Source: Escherichia coli | Lineage (GTDB): Bacteria; Pseudomonadota; Gammaproteobacteria; Enterobacterales; Enterobacteriaceae | NCBI RefSeq assembly: GCF_030013595.1 | Contig: NZ_CP122768.1 | Reading direction: 5' to 3' (one strand) | Length of the DNA stretch: 64,000 nucleotides | Shown here: piece by piece, positions 7,012-60,746 of the stretch | How the letters are laid out: every line of letters begins with the position of its first letter | How positions within the stretch are numbered: the first letter of the stretch is position 1 | Made by a program: the position numbers and the translations under genes | Notes under the pieces: generated by a model | Seen by the model: the letters and a program-made list of their open reading frames with translations, nothing else | The model's database searches: none | What the model was told of the DNA's origin: nothing

Positions 7012-7175
7012 CCTTATACGAACAACACCACCCCGTAGGACGGATAAGGCGTTTACGCTGCATCCGGCAACCTATGCCTGATGCGACGCTGAAGCGTCTT
7101 ATCATGCCTACATAGCACTGCCACGTATGTCGGAAAAGGCGTTTACACCGCATCCGGCATAAAAACACGCGCACT
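7012..7175. repeat. REP (repetitive extragenic palindromic) elements
   Basis: Several copies of the GCCGGATGCGGCGT / CGCCTTATCCGGC-type palindromic unit between fbaB and gatY. Confidence 0.7.
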
Positions 7176-12800: not shown

Positions 12801-13574
12801 ATGAATTCATTCGAGCGAAGGAATAAGATCATCCAATTAGTGAATGAACAGGGAACCATGCTTGTTCAGGATCTGGCGGGAGTATTTGCTGCCTCGGAAG
12901 CGACAATCCGTGCCGATTTGCGCTTTCTCGAACAAAAAGGCGTGGTTACGCGCTTTCATGGCGGTGCGGCGAAAATAATGTCCGGTAATAGTGAAACCGA
13001 GACCCAGGAAGTCGGGTTTAAAGAGCGATTTCAGCTCGCCAGCGCGCCGAAAAACAGAATAGCGCAGGCGGCAGTCAAAATGATCCATGAAGGGATGACC
13101 GTTATTCTCGACAGCGGAAGTACCACAATGCTTATCGCCGAAGGATTAATGACCGCCAAAAATATCACGGTGATTACCAACAGTCTCCCGGCTGCGTTTG
13201 CCCTTTCCGAAAATAAAGACATTACTCTGGTCGTCTGCGGTGGCACGGTCCGCCATAAAACGCGATCTATGCATGGATCTATTGCTGAACGTTCCCTGCA
13301 GGATATTAATGCCGATTTAATGTTTGTCGGTGCTGATGGTATTGATGCGGTTAATGGTATTACGACCTTTAATGAGGGTTATTCCGTTAGCGGTGCGATG
13401 GTCACAGCCGCTAATAAAGTGATTGCCGTTCTCGATTCATCGAAATTTAACCGTCGCGGTTTTAATCAGGTACTGCCAATCGAAAAAATTGACATTATTA
13501 TTACCGATGATGCTGTGTCTGAGGTGGATAAACTGGCATTGCAGAAGACACGGGTGAAATTAATTACGGTGTAG
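12801..13574 (+). CDS. gatR: DeoR-family repressor of the galactitol operon (intact)
   Basis: ORF from 12795; MNSFERRNKIIQLVNEQGTMLVQDLA... is a DeoR-type HTH N-terminus; uninterrupted reading frame of about 257 aa. Confidence 0.85.
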   Translation: MNSFERRNKIIQLVNEQGTMLVQDLAGVFAASEATIRADLRFLEQKGVVTRFHGGAAKIMSGNSETETQEVGFKERFQLASAPKNRIAQAAVKMIHEGMTVILDSGSTTMLIAEGLMTAKNITVITNSLPAAFALSENKDITLVVCGGTVRHKTRSMHGSIAERSLQDINADLMFVGADGIDAVNGITTFNEGYSVSGAMVTAANKVIAVLDSSKFNRRGFNQVLPIEKIDIIITDDAVSEVDKLALQKTRVKLITV

Positions 13575-15427: not shown

Positions 15428-15514
15428 CTTATGCATAAAAAAATAAGCCCGTGTAAGGGAGATTACACAGGCTAAGGAGGTGGTTCCTGGTACAGCTAGC
15501 ATTTTATGGGTTAT
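15428..15514 (-). ncRNA. cyaR: Hfq-dependent small RNA CyaR (RyeE)
   Basis: Minus-strand sequence GCTGAAAAACATAACCCATAAAATGCTAGCTGTACCAGGAACCACCTCCTTAGCCTGTGTAATCTCCCTTACACGGGCTTATTTTTT matches CyaR as I recall it, including the terminator hairpin and U tract. Confidence 0.8.
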
Positions 15515-15608
15515 GTTTTTCAGCGAAACGGATGATAACCTTAATAAATGCAGCTGTATGTGATCGGTTTCTAAGAATTTTCCATCCGGGAAAAATAATC
15601 GAAATTAA

Positions 15609-16970: not shown

Positions 16971-17072
16971 AATTCTCTCGTTCTGATGACAGGTCAGATC
17001 CGCTTCACCTGATGAAGCGGTTAGGGGAGTGCCCCCACTTTAAGGGCGGGCATTGTAGCGCAATCGGCGGGT

Positions 17073-17369
17073 TTAGCTCCAGTGTAAATGTCTGGTGGCG
17101 TCCTGGTTTTGGTTAAGGATACGAATGACGATAATTTCCCCTGGTGATTGCAGGAAATAAATGACGTGGCGTTCAAAAGGAAGAACAAAAATACCTTCGC
17201 CTAATTCAGGTCTGGGCGTACCTATATTATTGTTACTCAGAATCTGGAGAACGTCTGAAAGATGTTCCACATATCTGTCGGCTTGTGGTTCGCCGAAATG
17301 GTGATAGCTGTAATACCAGATGCCTTCTAAATCCTCATTGGCTTTTGGCATGAGTTTAATAATACGCAC
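17073..17369 (-). CDS. ParE/RelE-superfamily type II toxin
   Basis: 98-aa ORF; pattern ...ANEDLEGIWYY...PRPELGEGIFVLPFERHVIYF...IIVIRILNQNQD fits ParE-family toxins; start is 1 nt after the upstream antitoxin stop. Confidence 0.7.
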   Translation of the reverse strand: MRIIKLMPKANEDLEGIWYYSYHHFGEPQADRYVEHLSDVLQILSNNNIGTPRPELGEGIFVLPFERHVIYFLQSPGEIIVIRILNQNQDATRHLHWS

Positions 17370-17370
17370 A

Positions 17371-17622
17371 TTATTTCCTTATCCCTGCTTTCACCTTCCG
17401 TAAGAACGCGTCCTTTTCCCACGGCTGAGCTTCACCACTACTCAACCCTTCTGCGAGCATGTCACGTAACGCTTGCAGGCGAGACTCTGCTTGCTTTTCT
17501 CGAAGTAATCGCAGTGACTCACGGATCACTTCGCTTTGGGTGCGATAGTCGCCGGATTCAATTAAGGACTCGATAAATTCACGCAACTCATCGCCGAGAT
17601 CAACCGTCATCGTTCTGGCCAT
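17371..17622 (-). CDS. ParD-family (ribbon-helix-helix, COG3609-like) antitoxin
   Basis: 83 aa from the internal ATG at 17622 (MARTMTVDLGDELREFIESLIESGDYRTQSEVIRESLRLL...); ORF track begins at 17667 but that start lacks an SD. Confidence 0.7.
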   Translation of the reverse strand: MARTMTVDLGDELREFIESLIESGDYRTQSEVIRESLRLLREKQAESRLQALRDMLAEGLSSGEAQPWEKDAFLRKVKAGIRK

Positions 17623-17875
17623 TTTACGCCCGCCTGTAAGTAAAAATCTTACATCAGTGTATGTCATAAACCGGATAGCGTCACGAAAGTATTAGAAGAT
17701 ATTTTGGCACATGAACATGTTCAGGAGGATAAGTATGGGATGGTAAACAAAGAAAGCACAACGAGTGCTCGTCAGTGCCCACTATTTTAATGGCGGCGGT
17801 TACTCTTAATTATTAATAACTAAGCGTTATTTGGATATAAAGCCGGACGCCAACAACCCACGCCCGGCATCGTAA

Positions 17876-25011: not shown

Positions 25012-28000
25012 TTACGCCTCCTCTTCATGACGGGCAAAGCGGCTTTTGGTCCACAATGCCAGGCGGTCGAACAGCAGATAAATCACCGGCGTGGTGAACA
25101 GCGTCAGCACCTGGCTGACAATCAGGCCGCCGACCATGCCGATACCTAACGGACGACGCAGTTCCGCGCCGACCCCGGTACTCAACATCAGCGGCAGCGC
25201 GCCAAGCAGAGCCGCCAGGGTGGTCATCAGGATCGGACGAAAACGCAACAGACAAGCCTGGTAGATTGCCTCGCGCGGCGACATGCCTTGCTCGCGCTCG
25301 GCAGCCAGCGCGAAGTCGATCATCATGATGGCGTTCTTCTTCACGATACCGATCAGCAAAATAATGCCGATAATCGCAATCACATCCAGTTCGCTACCAG
25401 CAATCAGCAACGCCAGCAGTGCGCCAACCCCTGCGGTGGGTAGCGTCGAGAGAATGGTGATCGGGTGAATAAAGCTCTCGTACAGAATGCCGAGCACGAT
25501 ATACATCGCCACCACCGCCGCGACAATCAGCCAGACAGTGCTGCCCAGCGCCGACTGGAAGGCGAGGGTGCTGCCCTGGAACTGCGTGGTGATATCCACC
25601 GGCAGATTCAGCGTCTTTTCGGTGTCCATAATCGCCTGCACCGCATCGCCCAGCGAATAGTTATCCGGCACGTTAAAGGAGATGGTCGTTACCGGGAACT
25701 GATCCAGATGGTTGATGGAGAGCGGCGCAAAACGCTGCTCAATTTTGGCAATTGAGCTTAGCGGCACCACGCCGCCGTCGCTGCTGGTCAGGCGAATGGT
25801 ATCCAGCGCCGCGAGGCCTGGGGTATTTTCGGTGTTGTGCTCCAGCACCACGCGATACTGGTTGGCCTGAGTATAAATAGTGGAAATCAGCCGCTGACCA
25901 AACGCGTTGTACAGGGCGTTATCGACATCCGCCATGCTGATCCCCAGACGGCTGGCGCTGTCGCGATCAACATTGACATACGCCACCAGCCCTTTGTCCT
26001 GCCAGTCGCTGGAGACATCAGAAAGCTGTGGCAGTTGCTGGAGTTTTTCCATCAACTGTGGCACCCAGGTACTGAGCGCATCCAGTGACGTGGCCTGCAA
26101 GGTAAACTGGTACTGGGTGCGGCTGACCTGAGTATCAATAGTCAGATCCTGCGTTGGTTGCAGGAAGAGATCGACGCCCGGCACTTTATCTACCGCCGTT
26201 TGCAGACGGGCGATGACTTTTTGCACCCGATCATCACGTTCATCCAACGGTTTGAGGTTGATTTGTAAACGTGCACTGTTCAGCGACGGGTTAGTGCCAT
26301 CAACGCCAACAAATGAGGTCAGGCTTTGCACTGCCGGATCCTGCAAAATCACGTCCGCGACCTGGCGTTGTCGCTGGGCCATATTGGCAAAGGAGCTGGA
26401 TTGCGGTGCCTGCAAAGTGCCCTGAATAATGCCATTGTCCTGTACCGGGAAGAAACCTTTCGGAATGAACACCCACAGCAGCACGCTAAGCAGCAGCGTG
26501 CTGAGTGCCACGCTTAAGGTCAGCCACGGATGATTCAGCACTTTCGCCAGTCCACGACCATAGGCGGCGATTATCCTGTCGAACATTTTTTCCGAGGCAC
26601 GGGAGAAGCGGTTCTGTTTACGCAACGACTCCTGGCTGAGCATCCGCGCGCACATCATCGGTGTCAGGGTCAGCGACACCACCGCTGAGATCAAAATCGC
26701 TACCGCCAGGGTAATAGCAAATTCGCGGAACAGTCGCCCGACGATATCGCCCATAAACAGCAGTGGGATCAACACCGCAATCAGCGAGAAGGTCAGCGAG
26801 ATAATGGTAAAGCCGATTTCACCTGCGCCCTTGAGCGCCGCCGCCAACGGTTTTTCGCCTTTTTCGATATAGCGGGAAATGTTTTCGATCACCACGATGG
26901 CGTCATCGACCACGAATCCGGTGGCGATAGTTAACGCCATCAGCGTCAGGTTATTGATTGAAAAATCGAGAAACACCATGACCGCGAAGGTGCCGATTAA
27001 CGACAGCGGCACTGCGAAGCCGGGAATGATGGTCGCCGGAATATTGCGCAAAAACAGGTAGATAATCATGACTACCAGCGCGATAGCCATCATCAATTCA
27101 AACTGGGTATCGTTGACCGATGCGCGGATATTGGTGGTGCGATCGGAAAGCACTGTTACCTTCACCGATTTCGGCAGACTCTCGGTGAGCTGTGGCAGCA
27201 TCTGCCGGATGCTGTCGGCGGTGGAGATAATGTTAGCACCGGGCTGGCGCTGAACATTCATCACAATGGCCTGTTCTTTGTTCGCCCATGCGCCAAGCCA
27301 GCTGTTTTCTGCACCTTGCTCTACGGTTGCGACATCGCCAAGACGAATCGGCGCGCCGTTCTGGTAGGCGATGATTAGCTGGCGATACTCTTCGGCGGAT
27401 TGCATCTGGTCGTTCGCGGAAAGCGTGACCGCACGGGAAGGGCCGTCGAGGCTACCTTTTGCCGAGTTAACGTTAGCGCCGGTAATGGCGGTGCGCACGG
27501 TTTCGCTGGTCAGGCCGAGGGCGGCAATCGCCTGAGCGTTAAGTTTGACGCGAACAGCCGGACGCTGACCGCCGGAAAGCGTCACCAGGCCGACGCCGGA
27601 AATCTGCGAGATTTTCTGCGCGACGCGGGTTTCCACCATATCTTCCACTTGCGTCATCGGCATGGCGGTTGAGGTGACGGCGAGCGTCATGATCGGCGGA
27701 TCTGCCGGGTTCACTTTGCTGTAAACCGGCGGGTTAGGCAGATCGCTCGGTAGCAGGTTAGTGGCGGCGTTAATCGCGGCCTGCACTTCCTGCTCGGCGA
27801 CATCGAGCGGTAATGTTAGCTGGAACTGTAAGGTGATAACTGACGCACCGCCGGAACTTTGCGACGACATCTGTTTCAGGCCAGACATCTGCCCGAACTG
27901 GCGTTCTAGCGGCGCGGTAACGGCAGAGGTCATGACATCCGGGCTGGCACCTGGGTAGAGCGTGACCACCTGAATGGTCGGATAGTCCACTTCCGGCAGC

Positions 28001-28134
28001 GCCGAAACGGGCAGGGCGCGATAACCGATAATCCCGGCGAGTAAGATCGCCACCATCAGCAGCGTGGTGGCCACAGGACGCATAATAAACAGGCGCGACG
28101 GGCCGCCTGTGCTGCTCGGGGGTAACACCTGCAT
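25012..28134 (-). CDS. mdtB: RND multidrug efflux pump subunit
   Basis: 1040-aa ORF ([26 protein letters not shown]...) recognised as MdtB. Confidence 0.92.
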
Positions 28135-29381
28135 CAGGAGCGTGCTCCTTTTTTCGCGTATTCGCGGCTGGTGGCTTTCTCTTCCGGAGTAGTGGCGCTC
28201 TGGGCTTCCACCACTTCCACTTTCGCCCCTTCGGTCAGGCGATCAATGCCGTCTGTCACCACGCGATCGCCCGCAGAAATACCTGCACGGATCACCACTT
28301 TCTGACTGTCCTGAATGCCCGGCGTCACCAGATGTTTGCTGACCTTGTTTTCGCTATTCAGCACCCAGACAAAATGGCCTTCATTGCCCATTTGCAGGGC
28401 GGCTGTTGGGATCACTACGGCGTTTTGTTCGGTGTCGACTAACATGCGCGCGTTAACAAACTGATTGGGAAACAGCGCATCATCCTGATTATTAAAGCGT
28501 GCTTTCACTTTAATCGTACCGGTAGTGGCATCGATTTGGTTATCTAGACTTAACAGCGTGCCTTCACTTAATTTCTTCGAGTTGGTGCGATCCCAGGCTT
28601 CTACCACCAGCGGTTTTCCGGCTTTCTGCGCCTGCACTACGGTAGCGATATCGCTTTCCGGCAGGGTAAAGACTAAATCGATAGGATGCGTCTGGGTGAT
28701 CACCACGATCCCGGTGGTATCACCACTGGAGATTTGGTTACCAACATCAACCTGCTTGAGACCAACGCGACCATCGACTGGTGCGGTAATCCGGCTCCAG
28801 TCGAGTTGCAGCTGCGCGCTGGCAACGCTTGCTTCATCAGCCTTAATGGTGCCTTCGGTTTCACTGACCAGCGCCTGTTGGGCATCCAGCTCCTGGCGGG
28901 AAACGAGATTGGTTTTTGCCAGTTGTTGATAACGCGCCAGGTCACGGCGGGCGTTGGCAAGCGTGGCTTTATCTTTTGCCAGTTGGCCCTGGGCTTGTGC
29001 TAATGCAACTTTGAACTGGCTGGGGTCAATTTCTGCCAGTAAATCGCCTGCTTTGACCTGCTGGCCTTCCTGGAAATGTAACGCTATCAGTTGGCCGTCC
29101 ACGCGGCTGCGCACCGTAACGGTATTAGCGGCGGTAATGGTGCCAAGCCCGGTGAGGTAACGCGGAACTGCCTGTTCTACGGCGGTCGCCGCCTGAACCG
29201 GGGCTAATGGGCCGGAACGCATACCACGTCGACCACCCGCTGGCGATTGCTGCGCTTGTTTCGTCGCCCCTGGGGCTGCACTCCGGGAGTCATTGCGGCC
29301 TTGCCAGAACCAGAATGCGGCGATGGCGGCGATAACCACCACGATTACGATTACCCAACGGGATTTATAACTACCTTTCAT
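28134..29381 (-). CDS. mdtA: RND efflux periplasmic adaptor (membrane fusion protein)
   Basis: ORF track extends to 29528; the internal ATG at 29381 ([23 protein letters not shown]...) gives 415 aa; stop overlaps the mdtB start. Confidence 0.88.
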
Positions 29382-29434
29382 CGTTAAGAGTTTCTCTTCC
29401 TGAAACGTTTCGCGGAATGATACTAGTGTAGCCA

Positions 29435-29452
29435 GCCAATAAGGGAGAAAAA
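29435..29452 (-). promoter_or_regulatory. candidate BaeR binding box in the mdtA promoter
   Basis: Minus-strand TTTTTCTCCCTTATTGGC, about 55-70 nt upstream of the mdtA start, closely matches the BaeR box consensus (TTTTTCTCCATDATTGGC) as I recall it. Confidence 0.5.
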
Positions 29453-29599
29453 TGGAGGAATTATGAAACACTGTCTGGAATCGTCTGAATGACGGGCACA
29501 TTTGCGAGCACGCATCCAGTAATAACACAGGAAACTATTTTATCTACGCGTTAGCGATAGACTGCTTGCATGGCGAAAGGAGGTAAGCCGACGATTTCA

Positions 29600-29740
29600 G
29601 CGGGACGCTGAAACGGGAAAGCCCCTCCCGAGGAAGGGGCCATAAATAAGGAAAGGGTCATGATGAAGCTACTCATCATCGTGGTGCTCTTAGTCATAAG
29701 CTTCCCCGCTTACTAAGACTACCAGGGCGGGGGAAACCCC
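29600..29740 (-). ncRNA. sibB: Sib-type antisense sRNA (antitoxin of ibsB); approximate bounds
   Basis: Established arrangement: Sib RNAs are transcribed antisense across ibs ORFs. A minus-strand hairpin plus T-rich tract lies near 29600-29640. Bounds not verifiable here. Confidence 0.35.
29660..29716 (+). CDS. ibsB: type I toxin, small hydrophobic peptide
   Basis: 18-codon ORF encoding MMKLLIIVVLLVISFPAY preceded by AAGGAAAGGG; matches the Ibs toxin family. Confidence 0.7.
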   Translation: MMKLLIIVVLLVISFPAY

Positions 29741-29929
29741 GCTCTACCCTCACTCCTGAAAGTATGCCTTCACGATAAGATTGTCAATCCGCAGGCTTTG
29801 TAGTCTGCGATCCTGCCAGCAAATATTCTTTGCGAGTCGTTACGCAATAATCACAGAGGAAACTATTTTATTCACGCGTTAGCGATAGACTGCATTCAGG
29901 GCGAAAGGAGGTAAGCCGATGATTTCAGC

Positions 29930-30070
29930 GGGACGCTGAAACGGGAAAGCCTCTCCCGGAGAAGAGGGCTTTTAATAAGGAAAGGGTTATGATGAAGCAC
30001 GTCATCATACTGGTGATACTCTTAGTGATTAGCTTCCAGGCTTACTAAGAACACCAGGGGGAGGGGGAAA
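29930..30070 (-). ncRNA. sibA: Sib-type antisense sRNA (antitoxin of ibsA); approximate bounds
   Basis: Second copy of the repeat unit; inferred by analogy with the first copy. Confidence 0.35.
29989..30048 (+). CDS. ibsA: type I toxin, small hydrophobic peptide
   Basis: 19-codon ORF encoding MMKHVIILVILLVISFQAY preceded by AAGGAAAGGG. Confidence 0.7.
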   Translation: MMKHVIILVILLVISFQAY

Positions 30071-30268
30071 CCTCTCCCTAACCCTCACTCCTGAAATTAT
30101 GTCACTCCGCCCTTAGTGTCAATCGACGGCTCTCCGTTCTTGCGAGGCGAATAGCAAAATTTTCTGCGCCGCCGGGCCTAATTCTGAAAGTTTCTTCGTT
30201 TGCTCTTATTTCATTATTGCAGTCGGTATGATACCGGACCTCGATAATTCTCTAAGAAAGGATTTCTT

Positions 30269-30928
30269 ATGAGCGAACAAATCACGTTTGCCACCAGCGA
30301 TTTTGCCAGTAACCCGGAACCACGTTGCCCCTGCATTTTGCTGCTGGATGTTTCTGGTTCTATGAACGGTAGACCTATTAATGAACTTAACGCCGGATTG
30401 GTTACCTTTCGTGATGAACTGCTTGCTGATCCGCTGGCTTTAAAAAGAGTGGAACTCGGCATTGTGACGTTCGGCCCGGTGCATGTGGAACAACCCTTTA
30501 CCAGCGCCGCTAATTTTTTTCCGCCCATCCTGTTTGCCCAGGGCGATACACCAATGGGTGCGGCCATTACCAAAGCCCTGGATATGGTAGAGGAGCGGAA
30601 ACGTGAGTATCGTGCAAATGGTATTTCGTATTATCGCCCGTGGATTTTCCTGATTACCGATGGTGCACCAACCGATGAGTGGCAGGCTGCAGCCAACAAA
30701 GTGTTTCGGGGGGAAGAAGATAAAAGGTTTGCTTTCTTTTCCATCGGTGTTCAGGGGGCGGATATGAAGACGCTGGCACAAATTAGCGTTCGTCAGCCTT
30801 TGCCTCTGCAAGGATTACAATTCCGTGAACTGTTTAGCTGGTTATCCAGTTCGCTGCGTTCGGTTTCCCGCTCCACGCCGGGAACGGAAGTTGTGCTGGA
30901 AGCGCCAAAAGGCTGGACGTCAGTGTGA
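30269..30928 (+). CDS. yegL: von Willebrand factor A (vWA) domain protein, TerY-like
   Basis: 219-aa ORF with a MIDAS motif (LLLDVSGSM ... ITDGAPTD); recognised as YegL. Confidence 0.88.
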
Positions 30929-31686
30929 GCTGGCGTCTGGTCTATGCATCAACCGTTGGAACGTCGCACATCAGCGCGGACTTGCCTTGTCAGGATGCCT
31001 GCCAGATGCAGATTGCCTGGTTAAATGACCAGCAGCCATTATTGTCGGTATTTGTCGCTGATGGCGCAGGCAGTGTCTCGCAGGGTGGCGAAGGCGCGAT
31101 GCTCGCCGTCAATGAAGCGATGGCTTATATGTCGCAAAAAGTGCAGGGCGGGGAATTGGGGCTTAATGATGTCCTCGCCACAAATATGGTACTGACCATT
31201 CGTCAACGACTTTTTGCCGAGGCGGAAGCCAAAGAATTAGCGGTTCGCGATTTTGCCTGCACATTTCTGGGACTGATTTCATCGCCTGACGGCACCTTGA
31301 TTATGCAGATTGGCGATGGCGGCGTGGTGGTAGATTTGGGTCACGGTCTGCAATTGCCTCTCACGCCGATGGCGGGTGAATATGCCAACATGACGCACTT
31401 CATTACCGACGAAGATGCCGTTTCCAGACTGGAAACTTTCACCAGCACTGGGCGTGCGCACAAAGTTGCAGCATTTACGGATGGTATCCAGCGACTGGCG
31501 TTAAATATGCTGGATAATTCTCCTCATGTGCCTTTCTTTACCCCGTTTTTCAATGGACTGGCGGCAGCAACGCAGGAACAACTCGATTTATTACCTGAAT
31601 TGTTAAAGCAGTTTTTGTCCAGCCCGGCGGTAAACGAGCGTACGGATGATGATAAAACGTTGGCACTGGCGCTGTGGGCAGAGTGA
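30925..31686 (+). CDS. pphC: PP2C-family Ser/Thr protein phosphatase
   Basis: 253-aa ORF (YegK); GTG start overlaps the yegL stop (GTGA), implying translational coupling; VADGAGS / IGDGG motifs fit a PP2C fold. Confidence 0.85.
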
Positions 31687-45523: not shown

Positions 45524-45991
45524 AGTAAGTACAAAACCTATTCGTTGTATGACAAATGTCACAATTCGATCATGGATAAATCGGGGCAAAAATGCAATGT
45601 TGCAGCACTATTTATCTCATATTATTTGAGGGTAATAACCTCACATTATCCCTGAATTAAAAGTGGTAATAATAAAACATTATTTAAGAAATATCGCATG
45701 TGGAGGCGCAATATTAAATATTGTCAACCTAAAGAAACTCCTAAAAACCATATTGAATGACACTTAATATAATTCTTAAAAATAGCCAATTGCCGAATTG
45801 TTACCTTGCCTGCTATTCCGTTAGCTGTAACACTTCCTCCTGCATTATTGGAGAGCCAATATTCAATTACCATAATGTCACCTTATATTCGGAAGTTAAT
45901 TTCCGCAATAACCCTTTCTCATCAACGATTGTATGCTGAGAGGGTGTGAAAAATTAAGCTAAATCAGTGTATTGGTAGCTAAAAAGCCAGG

Positions 45992-46003
45992 GGCGGTAGC
46001 GTG
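45992..46003 (+). promoter_or_regulatory. ops element (RfaH-dependent antitermination signal, within JUMPstart)
   Basis: Exact GGCGGTAGCGTG about 180 nt upstream of the wza start. Confidence 0.65.
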
Positions 46004-60380: not shown

Positions 60381-60656
<276 letters not shown>

Positions 60657-60746
60657 AATGAATGCGAAACCGCGGTGTAAATAATGACAAAAACAAAATT
60701 GGCCGTTTCGGTCAGGGCCAACTATTGCCTGAAAAAGGGTAACGAC

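Follow-up and report, generated by a model that had tools for sequence, protein, structure and literature searches.

Two tandem Ibs/Sib type I toxin-antitoxin modules between mdtA and yegL in an Escherichia coli genome

The stretch of Escherichia coli DNA analyzed in this study (64,000 nucleotides; referred to below as the window) almost certainly carries, between mdtA and yegL, two tandem type I toxin-antitoxin modules, ibsB/sibB followed by ibsA/sibA when read in the direction from mdtA to yegL (Table 1). Positions 27997-31097 of the window are the exact reverse complement of positions 2152300-2155400 of the genome of E. coli K-12 strain MG1655 (NC_000913.3), a segment of 3.1 kb with 100% sequence identity for which the K-12 record annotates yegL, sibA, ibsA, sibB, ibsB, and mdtA. 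By mapping this annotation onto the window, we assigned the unit adjoining mdtA to ibsB/sibB and the unit adjoining yegL to ibsA/sibA. The mdtA-yegL pair is the type locus of the Ibs/Sib family and has already been described; we encountered no evidence that contradicts this identification. The sibA and sibB loci were formerly designated RyeC/RyeD.

The region was present in 5,419 of the 5,426 complete E. coli genomes that were inspected by megablast, with its reading frames labelled as Ibs-family type I toxins, and 5,320 of the 5,426 genomes held at least 80% of the query sequence; a 100% identical query was found in K-12 and in further strains. RefSeq lists the ibs reading frames as 'type I toxin-antitoxin system Ibs family toxin' in thousands of genomes. 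The window as a whole is not derived from K-12: identity of 100% is limited to the ibs/sib neighbourhood, while the remainder is 97-99% identical to MG1655. Three structural differences set the window apart from MG1655; its gatR is free of IS3E, the PR-X remnant next to cyaR is missing, and an insertion of about 780 bp encoding ParD/ParE is present between trhP and yegP.

A seed-based repeat finder applied to positions 29500-30170 detected two direct-repeat units with a start-to-start distance of 328-335 bp. The longest ungapped repeat block comprises 139 nt (29501-29639 versus 29829-29967; 86% identical), and the mean column identity in a pairwise alignment of the two units is likewise 86%. 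Tandem Repeats Finder reported no array in this region, most likely as a consequence of the divergence and the indels between the approximately 330-bp units and not of a missing repeat. A first-pass annotation, made from the DNA sequence alone, had proposed a tandem duplication at this position whose copies differ by many substitutions. Both statements are confirmed; the SibA and SibB RNAs differ in 38 of 147 aligned columns.

Table 1. Coordinates of the genes, RNAs, and sequence elements of the mdtA-yegL region in the window.
Feature	Position	Strand	Basis
mdtA	28134-29381	-	K-12 annotation mapped onto window
Repeat unit 1, ibsB/sibB module, mdtA side	29501-29828	.	Direct-repeat families D1-D4 and pairwise alignment
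A/B-type upstream block, unit 1, contains GGCGAAAGGAGGTAAGCCG at 29572-29590	29525-29594	+	A/B conservation
Hairpin TTTCAGCGGGACGCTGAAA, unit 1, 3 nt past the SibB 3' end; putative 5' end of ibsB mRNA	29595-29613	+	Homology to ibsC/ibsD starts
SibB antisense RNA, 136 nt, G start, overlaps all of the ibsB ORF plus the ribosome-binding region	29616-29751	-	K-12 b4437 mapped; Rfam
SibB terminator hairpin GGCCCCUUCCUCGGGAGGGGCU, followed by UUCC	29620-29641	-	Fold and coordinates
SibB TRD2 equivalent (putative), pairing with the ibsB ribosome-binding region	29641-29660	-	Alignment to SibC
ibsB CDS, 18 aa, MMKLLIIVVLLVISFPAY, then stop	29660-29716	+	Translation; maps to K-12 b4668
SibB TRD1 equivalent (putative), pairing in the 3' part of the ibsB ORF	29688-29710	-	Alignment to SibC +46 to +68
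sibB promoter -35 box, perfect TTGACA	29782-29787	-	Rfam model starts at hexamer
Repeat unit 2, ibsA/sibA module, yegL side	29829-30160	.	Direct-repeat search and pairwise alignment
A/B-type upstream block, unit 2, contains GGCGAAAGGAGGTAAGCCG at 29900-29918	29853-29922	+	A/B conservation
Hairpin TTTCAGCGGGACGCTGAAA, unit 2; putative 5' end of ibsA mRNA	29923-29941	+	Homology to ibsC/ibsD starts
SibA antisense RNA, 144 nt, G start	29943-30086	-	K-12 b4436 mapped; Rfam
SibA terminator hairpin	29946-29972	-	Fold and coordinates
SibA TRD2 equivalent (putative), within the 24-nt run common to SibE	29970-29989	-	Alignment to SibC
ibsA CDS, 19 aa, MMKHVIILVILLVISFQAY, then stop	29989-30048	+	Maps to K-12 b4667, 'toxic peptide IbsA'
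SibA TRD1 equivalent (putative)	30020-30042	-	Alignment to SibC
sibA promoter -35 box, perfect TTGACA	30117-30122	-	Sequence
yegL	30269-30928	+	K-12 annotation mapped onto window

Each repeat unit contains one short reading frame for a hydrophobic peptide, and both peptides that the first-pass annotation had quoted are encoded exactly as given there. IbsB and IbsA are identical to their K-12 counterparts, can be aligned with IbsC, IbsD, and IbsE, and are made up largely of hydrophobic residues (14 of 18 and 14 of 19, respectively). Upstream of each ATG codon lies the sequence AAGGAAAGGG, a recognizable Shine-Dalgarno element; its earlier description as strong was slightly generous, as the sequence is imperfect. 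As summarized from Fozo 2008 in PMC2943612, overexpression of the 18-19-residue Ibs peptides is lethal and affects the cell envelope, while the constitutively made Sib RNAs repress their synthesis. The K-12 record refers to IbsB as a 'putative' toxic peptide, and the toxicity of this particular peptide is one that we infer.

Reading frames of 18-19 codons cannot be distinguished from chance by their length alone, and the ibs frames are shorter than the 20 aa that the ORF and HMM tools require, so that one might view the region as a non-coding intergenic repeat in which short reading frames have arisen fortuitously. We regard this as extremely improbable, and it is already contradicted by several lines of evidence. 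The peptides are conserved over the five K-12 paralogues and in strain variants, and synonymous changes (e.g., ATA to ATT, CCC to CCA) stand beside conservative substitutions such as F15W. Both the curated K-12 record and RefSeq list the reading frames as toxins, and toxicity of Ibs peptides has been reported experimentally (PMC2943612, citing Fozo 2008; 10.1101/2025.05.26.656083).

The minus strand of both units is matched over the full length (positions 1-147) of the Rfam model RF00113 (SIB_RNA, 'Gene; antitoxin'; gathering score 56). The match in unit 1 covers positions 29645-29787 (142 bits; E-value 2e-30) and that in unit 2 positions 29974-30122 (149.5 bits; E-value 3e-32); with E-values of about 1e-30 in both units, a chance origin of these matches is excluded. 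Together with the 100% identity to the annotated K-12 loci, the outcome of this covariance-model search upholds the proposal that the two units represent an Ibs/Sib arrangement. Since the RF00113 model opens at the -35 box, the Rfam matches begin upstream of the true transcription start sites of the Sib RNAs. ibsB is wholly contained within SibB and ibsA wholly within SibA, and in each case the ribosome-binding site is covered as well.

Each of the TTGACA -35 boxes is positioned 31-36 nt upstream of the annotated Sib +1 nucleotide. Candidates for the sibB -10 region are CATACT or TACTTT, and the sequence TGACATAAT located downstream of the sibA -35 box resembles an extended -10 element. A generic scan for sigma-70 promoters and terminators called neither the Sib and ibs promoters nor the Sib terminators. 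Its sole promoter site is a minus-strand one at 29489-29460, the site count being no higher than that obtained with shuffled sequences, and the terminator scan picked up a weak plus-strand hairpin complementary to the SibA terminator. As the promoter scan was silent on the Sib and ibs promoters, the -10 elements as well as the ibsA and ibsB start sites are presented here as inferred positions.

The predicted fold of the Sib RNAs consists of a closing stem around three hairpins, a single-stranded linker, a GC-rich terminal hairpin at the end of both RNAs, and a short U-tract (UUUCC). The fold z-score is -4.4 for both SibA and SibB, and none of 200 shuffled sequences folded as well. A consensus structure derived from nine Sib sequences (four strain variants in addition to the five paralogues of K-12) contains 37 base pairs, seven of which exhibit compensatory double changes; given that this sample is small and its members are closely related, these changes are supportive of the structure without constituting independent proof.

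Published data concur with the presence of the two antisense RNAs. RNA-seq has revealed abundant sibA and sibB transcripts, while those of ibsA and ibsB were nearly undetectable (PMC5389530). Transcripts of SibA and SibB that begin with a +1G have been assayed, and SibA was detected by northern blot analysis (PMC12956327); the G present at the Sib +1 position in the window agrees with these starts. The N-terminal (FinO) domain of the RNA chaperone ProQ binds SibA with a Kd of 7.6 nM and SibB with a Kd of 9.7 nM via the terminator, and the oligoU tail of SibB has been described as short with two cytidines at its end (PMC10168233), which is exactly matched by the sequence in the window.

The flanks of the toxin reading frames contain a hairpin, TTTCAGCGGGACGCTGAAA, that the first-pass annotation had quoted as an example. 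It occurs exactly twice in the window, once per unit, where shuffled sequences led us to expect none, and the earlier observation is thereby confirmed. All five units of K-12 carry its CAGC/GCTG stem unchanged, an invariance that speaks neither for nor against base-pairing. Positioned 3 nt beyond the Sib 3' end, the hairpin most likely constitutes the 5'-terminal stem-loop of the ibs mRNA. Primer sequences place the +1 nucleotide of ibsC and ibsD one or two bases ahead of the corresponding CAGC...GCTG hairpin, with the modelled 3' end of the mRNA lying opposite the Sib +1 nucleotide; the ibsC mRNA has a size of about 160 nt (PMC2943612). By analogy, the ibsB mRNA would extend approximately from 29597 to 29751 (155 nt) and that of ibsA approximately from 29925 to 30086 (162 nt), sizes that agree with that of the ibsC mRNA. 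These model transcripts yield fold z-scores of -4.6 (ibsB) and -5.7 (ibsA), and part of the Shine-Dalgarno sequence and of the AUGAUGA start region is predicted to be paired within them.

Further upstream, the A and B units share a block that includes the sequence GGCGAAAGGAGGTAAGCCG; it is invariant between these two units and absent from the ibsC, ibsD, and ibsE units of K-12. The block at 29525-29594 presumably holds the putative ibsB promoter. GGCGAAAGGAGGTAAGCCG includes a perfect Shine-Dalgarno-like sequence, AAGGAGGT, which precedes the ibs start codon by about 75 nt, and standby ribosome-loading sites or leader elements are described for other type I toxins. One may consider that the AAGGAGGT block belongs to a longer primary ibsA/ibsB transcript, in which it would act as such an element and not as a promoter spacer; we judge this to be rather unlikely. 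A mini-ORF located 3' of the AAGGAGGT block in unit 2 (ATG ATT TCA GCG GGA CGC TGA) was rejected as a gene; ACG replaces its ATG codon in unit 1.

The scarcity of ibsB transcripts (PMC5389530), the 'putative' status of IbsB in the K-12 record, and the length of this peptide, which falls one codon short of that of the four other Ibs peptides, could be taken to indicate that ibsB is a decaying or inert copy and that the SibB RNA alone is of importance, for instance as a ligand of ProQ or as a regulator in trans. Such a scenario appears quite improbable to us. The ibsB reading frame, its ribosome-binding site, and the start-codon hairpin are all intact and conserved, IbsB still conforms to the family pattern MMK...ISFPAY, and a B-type peptide is retained, at times in two to three copies, across the complete genomes that were sampled.

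How such modules operate has been worked out for SibC and SibD (PMC2943612). SibC contains two target recognition domains, TRD1 (+46 to +68), which is directed against the ibsC reading frame, and TRD2 (+99 to +115), which is directed against the translation-initiation region; both are located where the family varies most, and repression by SibC is accompanied by degradation of the mRNA (PMC2943612). When the TRD map of SibC is applied to SibA and SibB by alignment, putative equivalents of both elements can be delineated in each RNA (Table 1). We have assigned the mechanism to SibA and SibB from the literature and carried it over on the basis of sequence identity. According to this model, the plus strand of each unit would give rise to an ibs mRNA that is expressed at a low level, measures about 155-160 nt, and encodes a hydrophobic inner-membrane peptide of 18-19 residues, and the minus strand to an abundant Sib RNA (136 or 144 nt) that is fully complementary to the ribosome-binding region and to the whole reading frame of the toxin gene. 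Present in excess and bound by ProQ at its terminator hairpin, the Sib RNA would pair with the ibs mRNA through two independent recognition regions, TRD1 in the reading frame and TRD2 at the translation-initiation region. Pairing would then block translation and lead to decay of the mRNA, so that the toxin is not made.

The first-pass annotation had also surmised that the substitutions between the copies keep each antisense RNA specific for its own toxin mRNA. To evaluate this notion, we aligned the five K-12 Sib RNAs over 147 columns, in which TRD1 comprises 23 and TRD2 20 positions. Four of 23 TRD1 positions and four of 20 TRD2 positions distinguish SibA from SibB, and the longest run common to both spans 14 nt; these differences, in conjunction with the maximum run of 14 nt, make discrimination between the two RNAs plausible. 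The pair SibA/SibE differs in 37 of 147 columns (TRD1 7/23; TRD2 3/20; longest common run 24 nt), and the pair SibA/SibD in 43 of 147 (TRD1 9/23; TRD2 4/20; longest common run 22 nt). These 24-nt and 22-nt matches are perfect and cover the start codon of ibsA and its Shine-Dalgarno region. For the A versus B copies the earlier claim therefore stands as plausible, but it is too strong for ibsA, given the 24-nt and 22-nt runs and a report that repression across the family is restricted to cognate pairs, ibsA being the exception (Han et al., PMC2943612).

The chances seem to us about even that ibsA is also repressed by the non-cognate RNAs SibE and/or SibD, whose genes reside between yqiK and hldE; sequence divergence would then separate A from B, while control of ibsA would not be strictly cognate. 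Expression of ibsA in cells without the ibsA/sibA locus left survival unchanged (unpublished data cited in PMC2943612). A contiguous duplex of 22 nt suffices for repression (PMC2943612), and perfect runs of 24 nt (GCTTCATCATAACCCTTTCCTTAT; SibA/SibE) and 22 nt (SibA/SibD) extend over TRD2 and the start codon. Symmetry, however, would have SibA repress ibsE, which it reportedly does not (PMC2943612), and the exceptional behavior of ibsA could alternatively reflect too weak an expression of the gene or a lower toxicity of IbsA at its native levels. A direct test of SibE on ibsA was not found in the literature consulted.

The number of units at this locus varies: the mdtA-yegL array comprises one, two, three, or four ibs/sib units among complete E. 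coli genomes. In a sample of 40 rows taken at even steps, we counted about 20 three-copy arrays, 16 two-copy arrays, one one-copy array, and two four-copy arrays; these are approximate values. We resorted to such a sample since a query-coverage threshold proved unusable for recognizing three-copy genomes, in that genomes with two copies also reach full query coverage through BLAST pieces that overlap. That the number of Ibs genes varies by strain has been noted before, with seven Ibs genes present in O157:H7 Sakai (PMC2887945). The ibsB unit is a mosaic with respect to three-copy arrays: its 5' side corresponds to their first unit and its 3' side to their second unit, both being identical, with the switch falling within 29592-29681. 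In the single-copy form, a B-type 5' flank is joined to an A-type body. Both the mosaic and this junction fit deletion through recombination between neighbouring units, and it is possible, judging from these sequence comparisons, that an array of three copies collapsed by recombination into the two-copy array present in the window. Nearly all differences between SibB and the additional B-like copies fall in the segment equivalent to TRD1 (four of four differences in one strain and five of six in another), and these differences change F15 of IbsB to W or Y. Conceivably, divergence of the tandem copies is selected specifically in TRD1.

The mdtA-yegL locus ranks among the founding examples of type I toxin-antitoxin modules encoded on chromosomes; it contributes no new biology, and it is already curated in Rfam, in the K-12 reference record, and in RefSeq. 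Its value here is that of a positive control, as a very small toxin gene, the antisense arrangement, and the neighbouring genes were all correctly recognized from the raw DNA sequence.

When compared with ibsA/sibA (b4667/b4436) and ibsB/sibB (b4668/b4437) of K-12 MG1655, the modules in the window agree in sequence, in being flanked by mdtA and yegL, and in gene order and orientation; the locus shows no differences. The other K-12 members, ibsC/sibC (between fau and serA) and ibsD/sibD and ibsE/sibE (between yqiK and hldE), share the architecture of the A and B units and belong to the same Rfam family, and a core that extends from the CAGC...GCTG hairpin through the reading frame to the Sib -35 box is common to all A-E units. 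IbsC, IbsD, and IbsE are peptides of 19 aa with the pattern MM(K/R)...SF..Y, a pattern also present in the Ibs peptides encoded here. SibC, SibD, and SibE are separated from the two Sib RNAs of the window by 37-59 differences per 147 aligned columns; in addition, unlike SibA and SibB, they start with an A instead of a G and carry an NAD cap (PMC12956327). Furthermore, the GGCGAAAGGAGGTAAGCCG upstream block is a property of the A/B units that the ibsC, ibsD, and ibsE units do not possess.

Salmonella Typhimurium likewise possesses a 19-aa toxin, IbsA, that is fully overlapped by its antisense RNA SibA and whose induction leads to growth arrest; it inhibits the FoF1 ATP synthase and promotes systemic infection (10.1101/2025.05.26.656083). 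The Salmonella gene is located between yqiK and rfaE (hldE) and is therefore the positional counterpart of ibsD/ibsE and not of the mdtA-yegL locus. In view of this synteny, the FoF1 ATP synthase cannot be assumed to be the target of the mdtA-yegL peptides. A type I toxin-antitoxin survey published in mSystems in 2024 (PMC11264685) does not feature ibs/sib except for one entry in its reference list. Other chromosomal type I systems such as Ldr/Rdl and ZorO/OrzO also combine a small hydrophobic toxin with an antisense antitoxin and are tandemly duplicated within one intergenic region (PMC2887945). They belong, however, to unrelated sequence families, and several of their antitoxins overlap the toxin mRNA only in part, whereas the Sib RNAs cover the ribosome-binding region and the reading frame (PMC2943612).

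The number of ibs/sib units, each a tiny toxin gene with its antisense Sib RNA, at the mdtA-yegL site differs between complete E. coli genomes and ranges from one to four. In an even-step sample of 40 rows of matches, three units were present in about 20 rows, two units in 16, a single unit in one and four units in two. We chose two three-copy arrays (L004 and L006) and one single-copy locus (L005) as comparison loci, and every ibs/sib unit in these gave a full match to the Rfam SIB_RNA family (RF00113). Across the E. coli genome collection, 8-10 of roughly 18,000 Sib-like matches were borne on a plasmid and not on the chromosome.

Comparison of 29382-29988 with L004 and L006 revealed a composite structure of the ibsB unit (repeat unit 1) of the window, which equals that of K-12. 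Its 5' side matches unit 1 of the three-copy arrays perfectly, its 3' side is a perfect match to their unit 2, and the change from unit-1-like to unit-2-like sequence falls within 29592-29681. The single-copy locus L005 consists of an A-type body fused to a B-type 5' flank. Both the ibsB unit of the window and K-12 and the L005 locus look, from their sequences, like the products of deletions that arose through recombination between tandem units.

The extra B-like Sib copies of the three-copy arrays (L004:700-835 and L006:688-823) were set against SibB (window 29616-29751), and the differences proved to be almost confined to the segment equivalent to TRD1, the SibC-defined target-recognition domain aimed at the ibs open reading frame. 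Four of four differences lay within this segment in one strain and five of six in the other; these changes convert F15 of IbsB to W or Y and also include synonymous ones. The focus of the divergence on the TRD1-equivalent segment is compatible with selection for antisense discrimination, but a gene-conversion patch may instead have been its source.

Upstream of the ibs genes, the A/B-type units share a block, GGCGAAAGGAGGTAAGCCG, that includes a perfect AAGGAGGT and was unchanged in all seven A/B-type units examined; in a comparison of units, it was absent from those of ibsC, ibsD and ibsE, the K-12 paralogues located elsewhere. In unit 2, an ATG at ideal spacing after the block starts an open reading frame of six codons; the corresponding position in unit 1 is occupied by ACG.

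On the upstream side of mdtA, the minus strand carries a further sequence, TTTTTCTCCCTTATTGGC (29435-29452), some 50 bp away from where repeat unit 1 begins. It agrees at 17 of 18 positions with TTTTTCTCCATDATTGGC, which we take to be the published BaeR-binding consensus, and is the sole site of this type in the window. The TTTTTCTCCATDATTGGC string turns up in three papers on BaeSR or efflux pumps.

Features located in the window
Feature	Position	Strand	Remark
GGCGAAAGGAGGTAAGCCG block, unit 1	29572-29590		
GGCGAAAGGAGGTAAGCCG block, unit 2	29900-29918		
CyaR (RyeE) small RNA	15441-15526	minus	full-length Rfam match, 100.7 bits
JUMPstart element	45965-46003	plus	Rfam match; upstream of wza colanic-acid operon by K-12-mapped position
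algC RNA motif	60693-60742	plus	Rfam match; upstream of cpsG
naRNA4	7038-7108	plus	Rfam match
naRNA4	60448-60518	minus	Rfam match
naRNA4	60536-60606	minus	Rfam match
ParD-family antitoxin	17371-17667	minus	inside trhP-yegP insertion
RelE/ParE-family toxin	17073-17369	minus	inside trhP-yegP insertion

The 3.1 kb surrounding ibs/sib are 100% identical to strain MG1655, and 1123-64000 of the window is 97-99% identical to MG1655 2119726-2183396. Unlike MG1655, the window carries gatR without IS3E (junction near 13097) and, next to cyaR, has no PR-X, a cryptic prophage remnant with ogrK and yegZ (junction 15438-15455). Relative to K-12, it possesses about 780 bp of extra DNA (17062-17841) flanked by trhP (yegQ) and yegP; a query spanning this insertion was at least 80% covered in 1,843 of 5,426 complete E. 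coli genomes. Taken as a whole, the window is not K-12.
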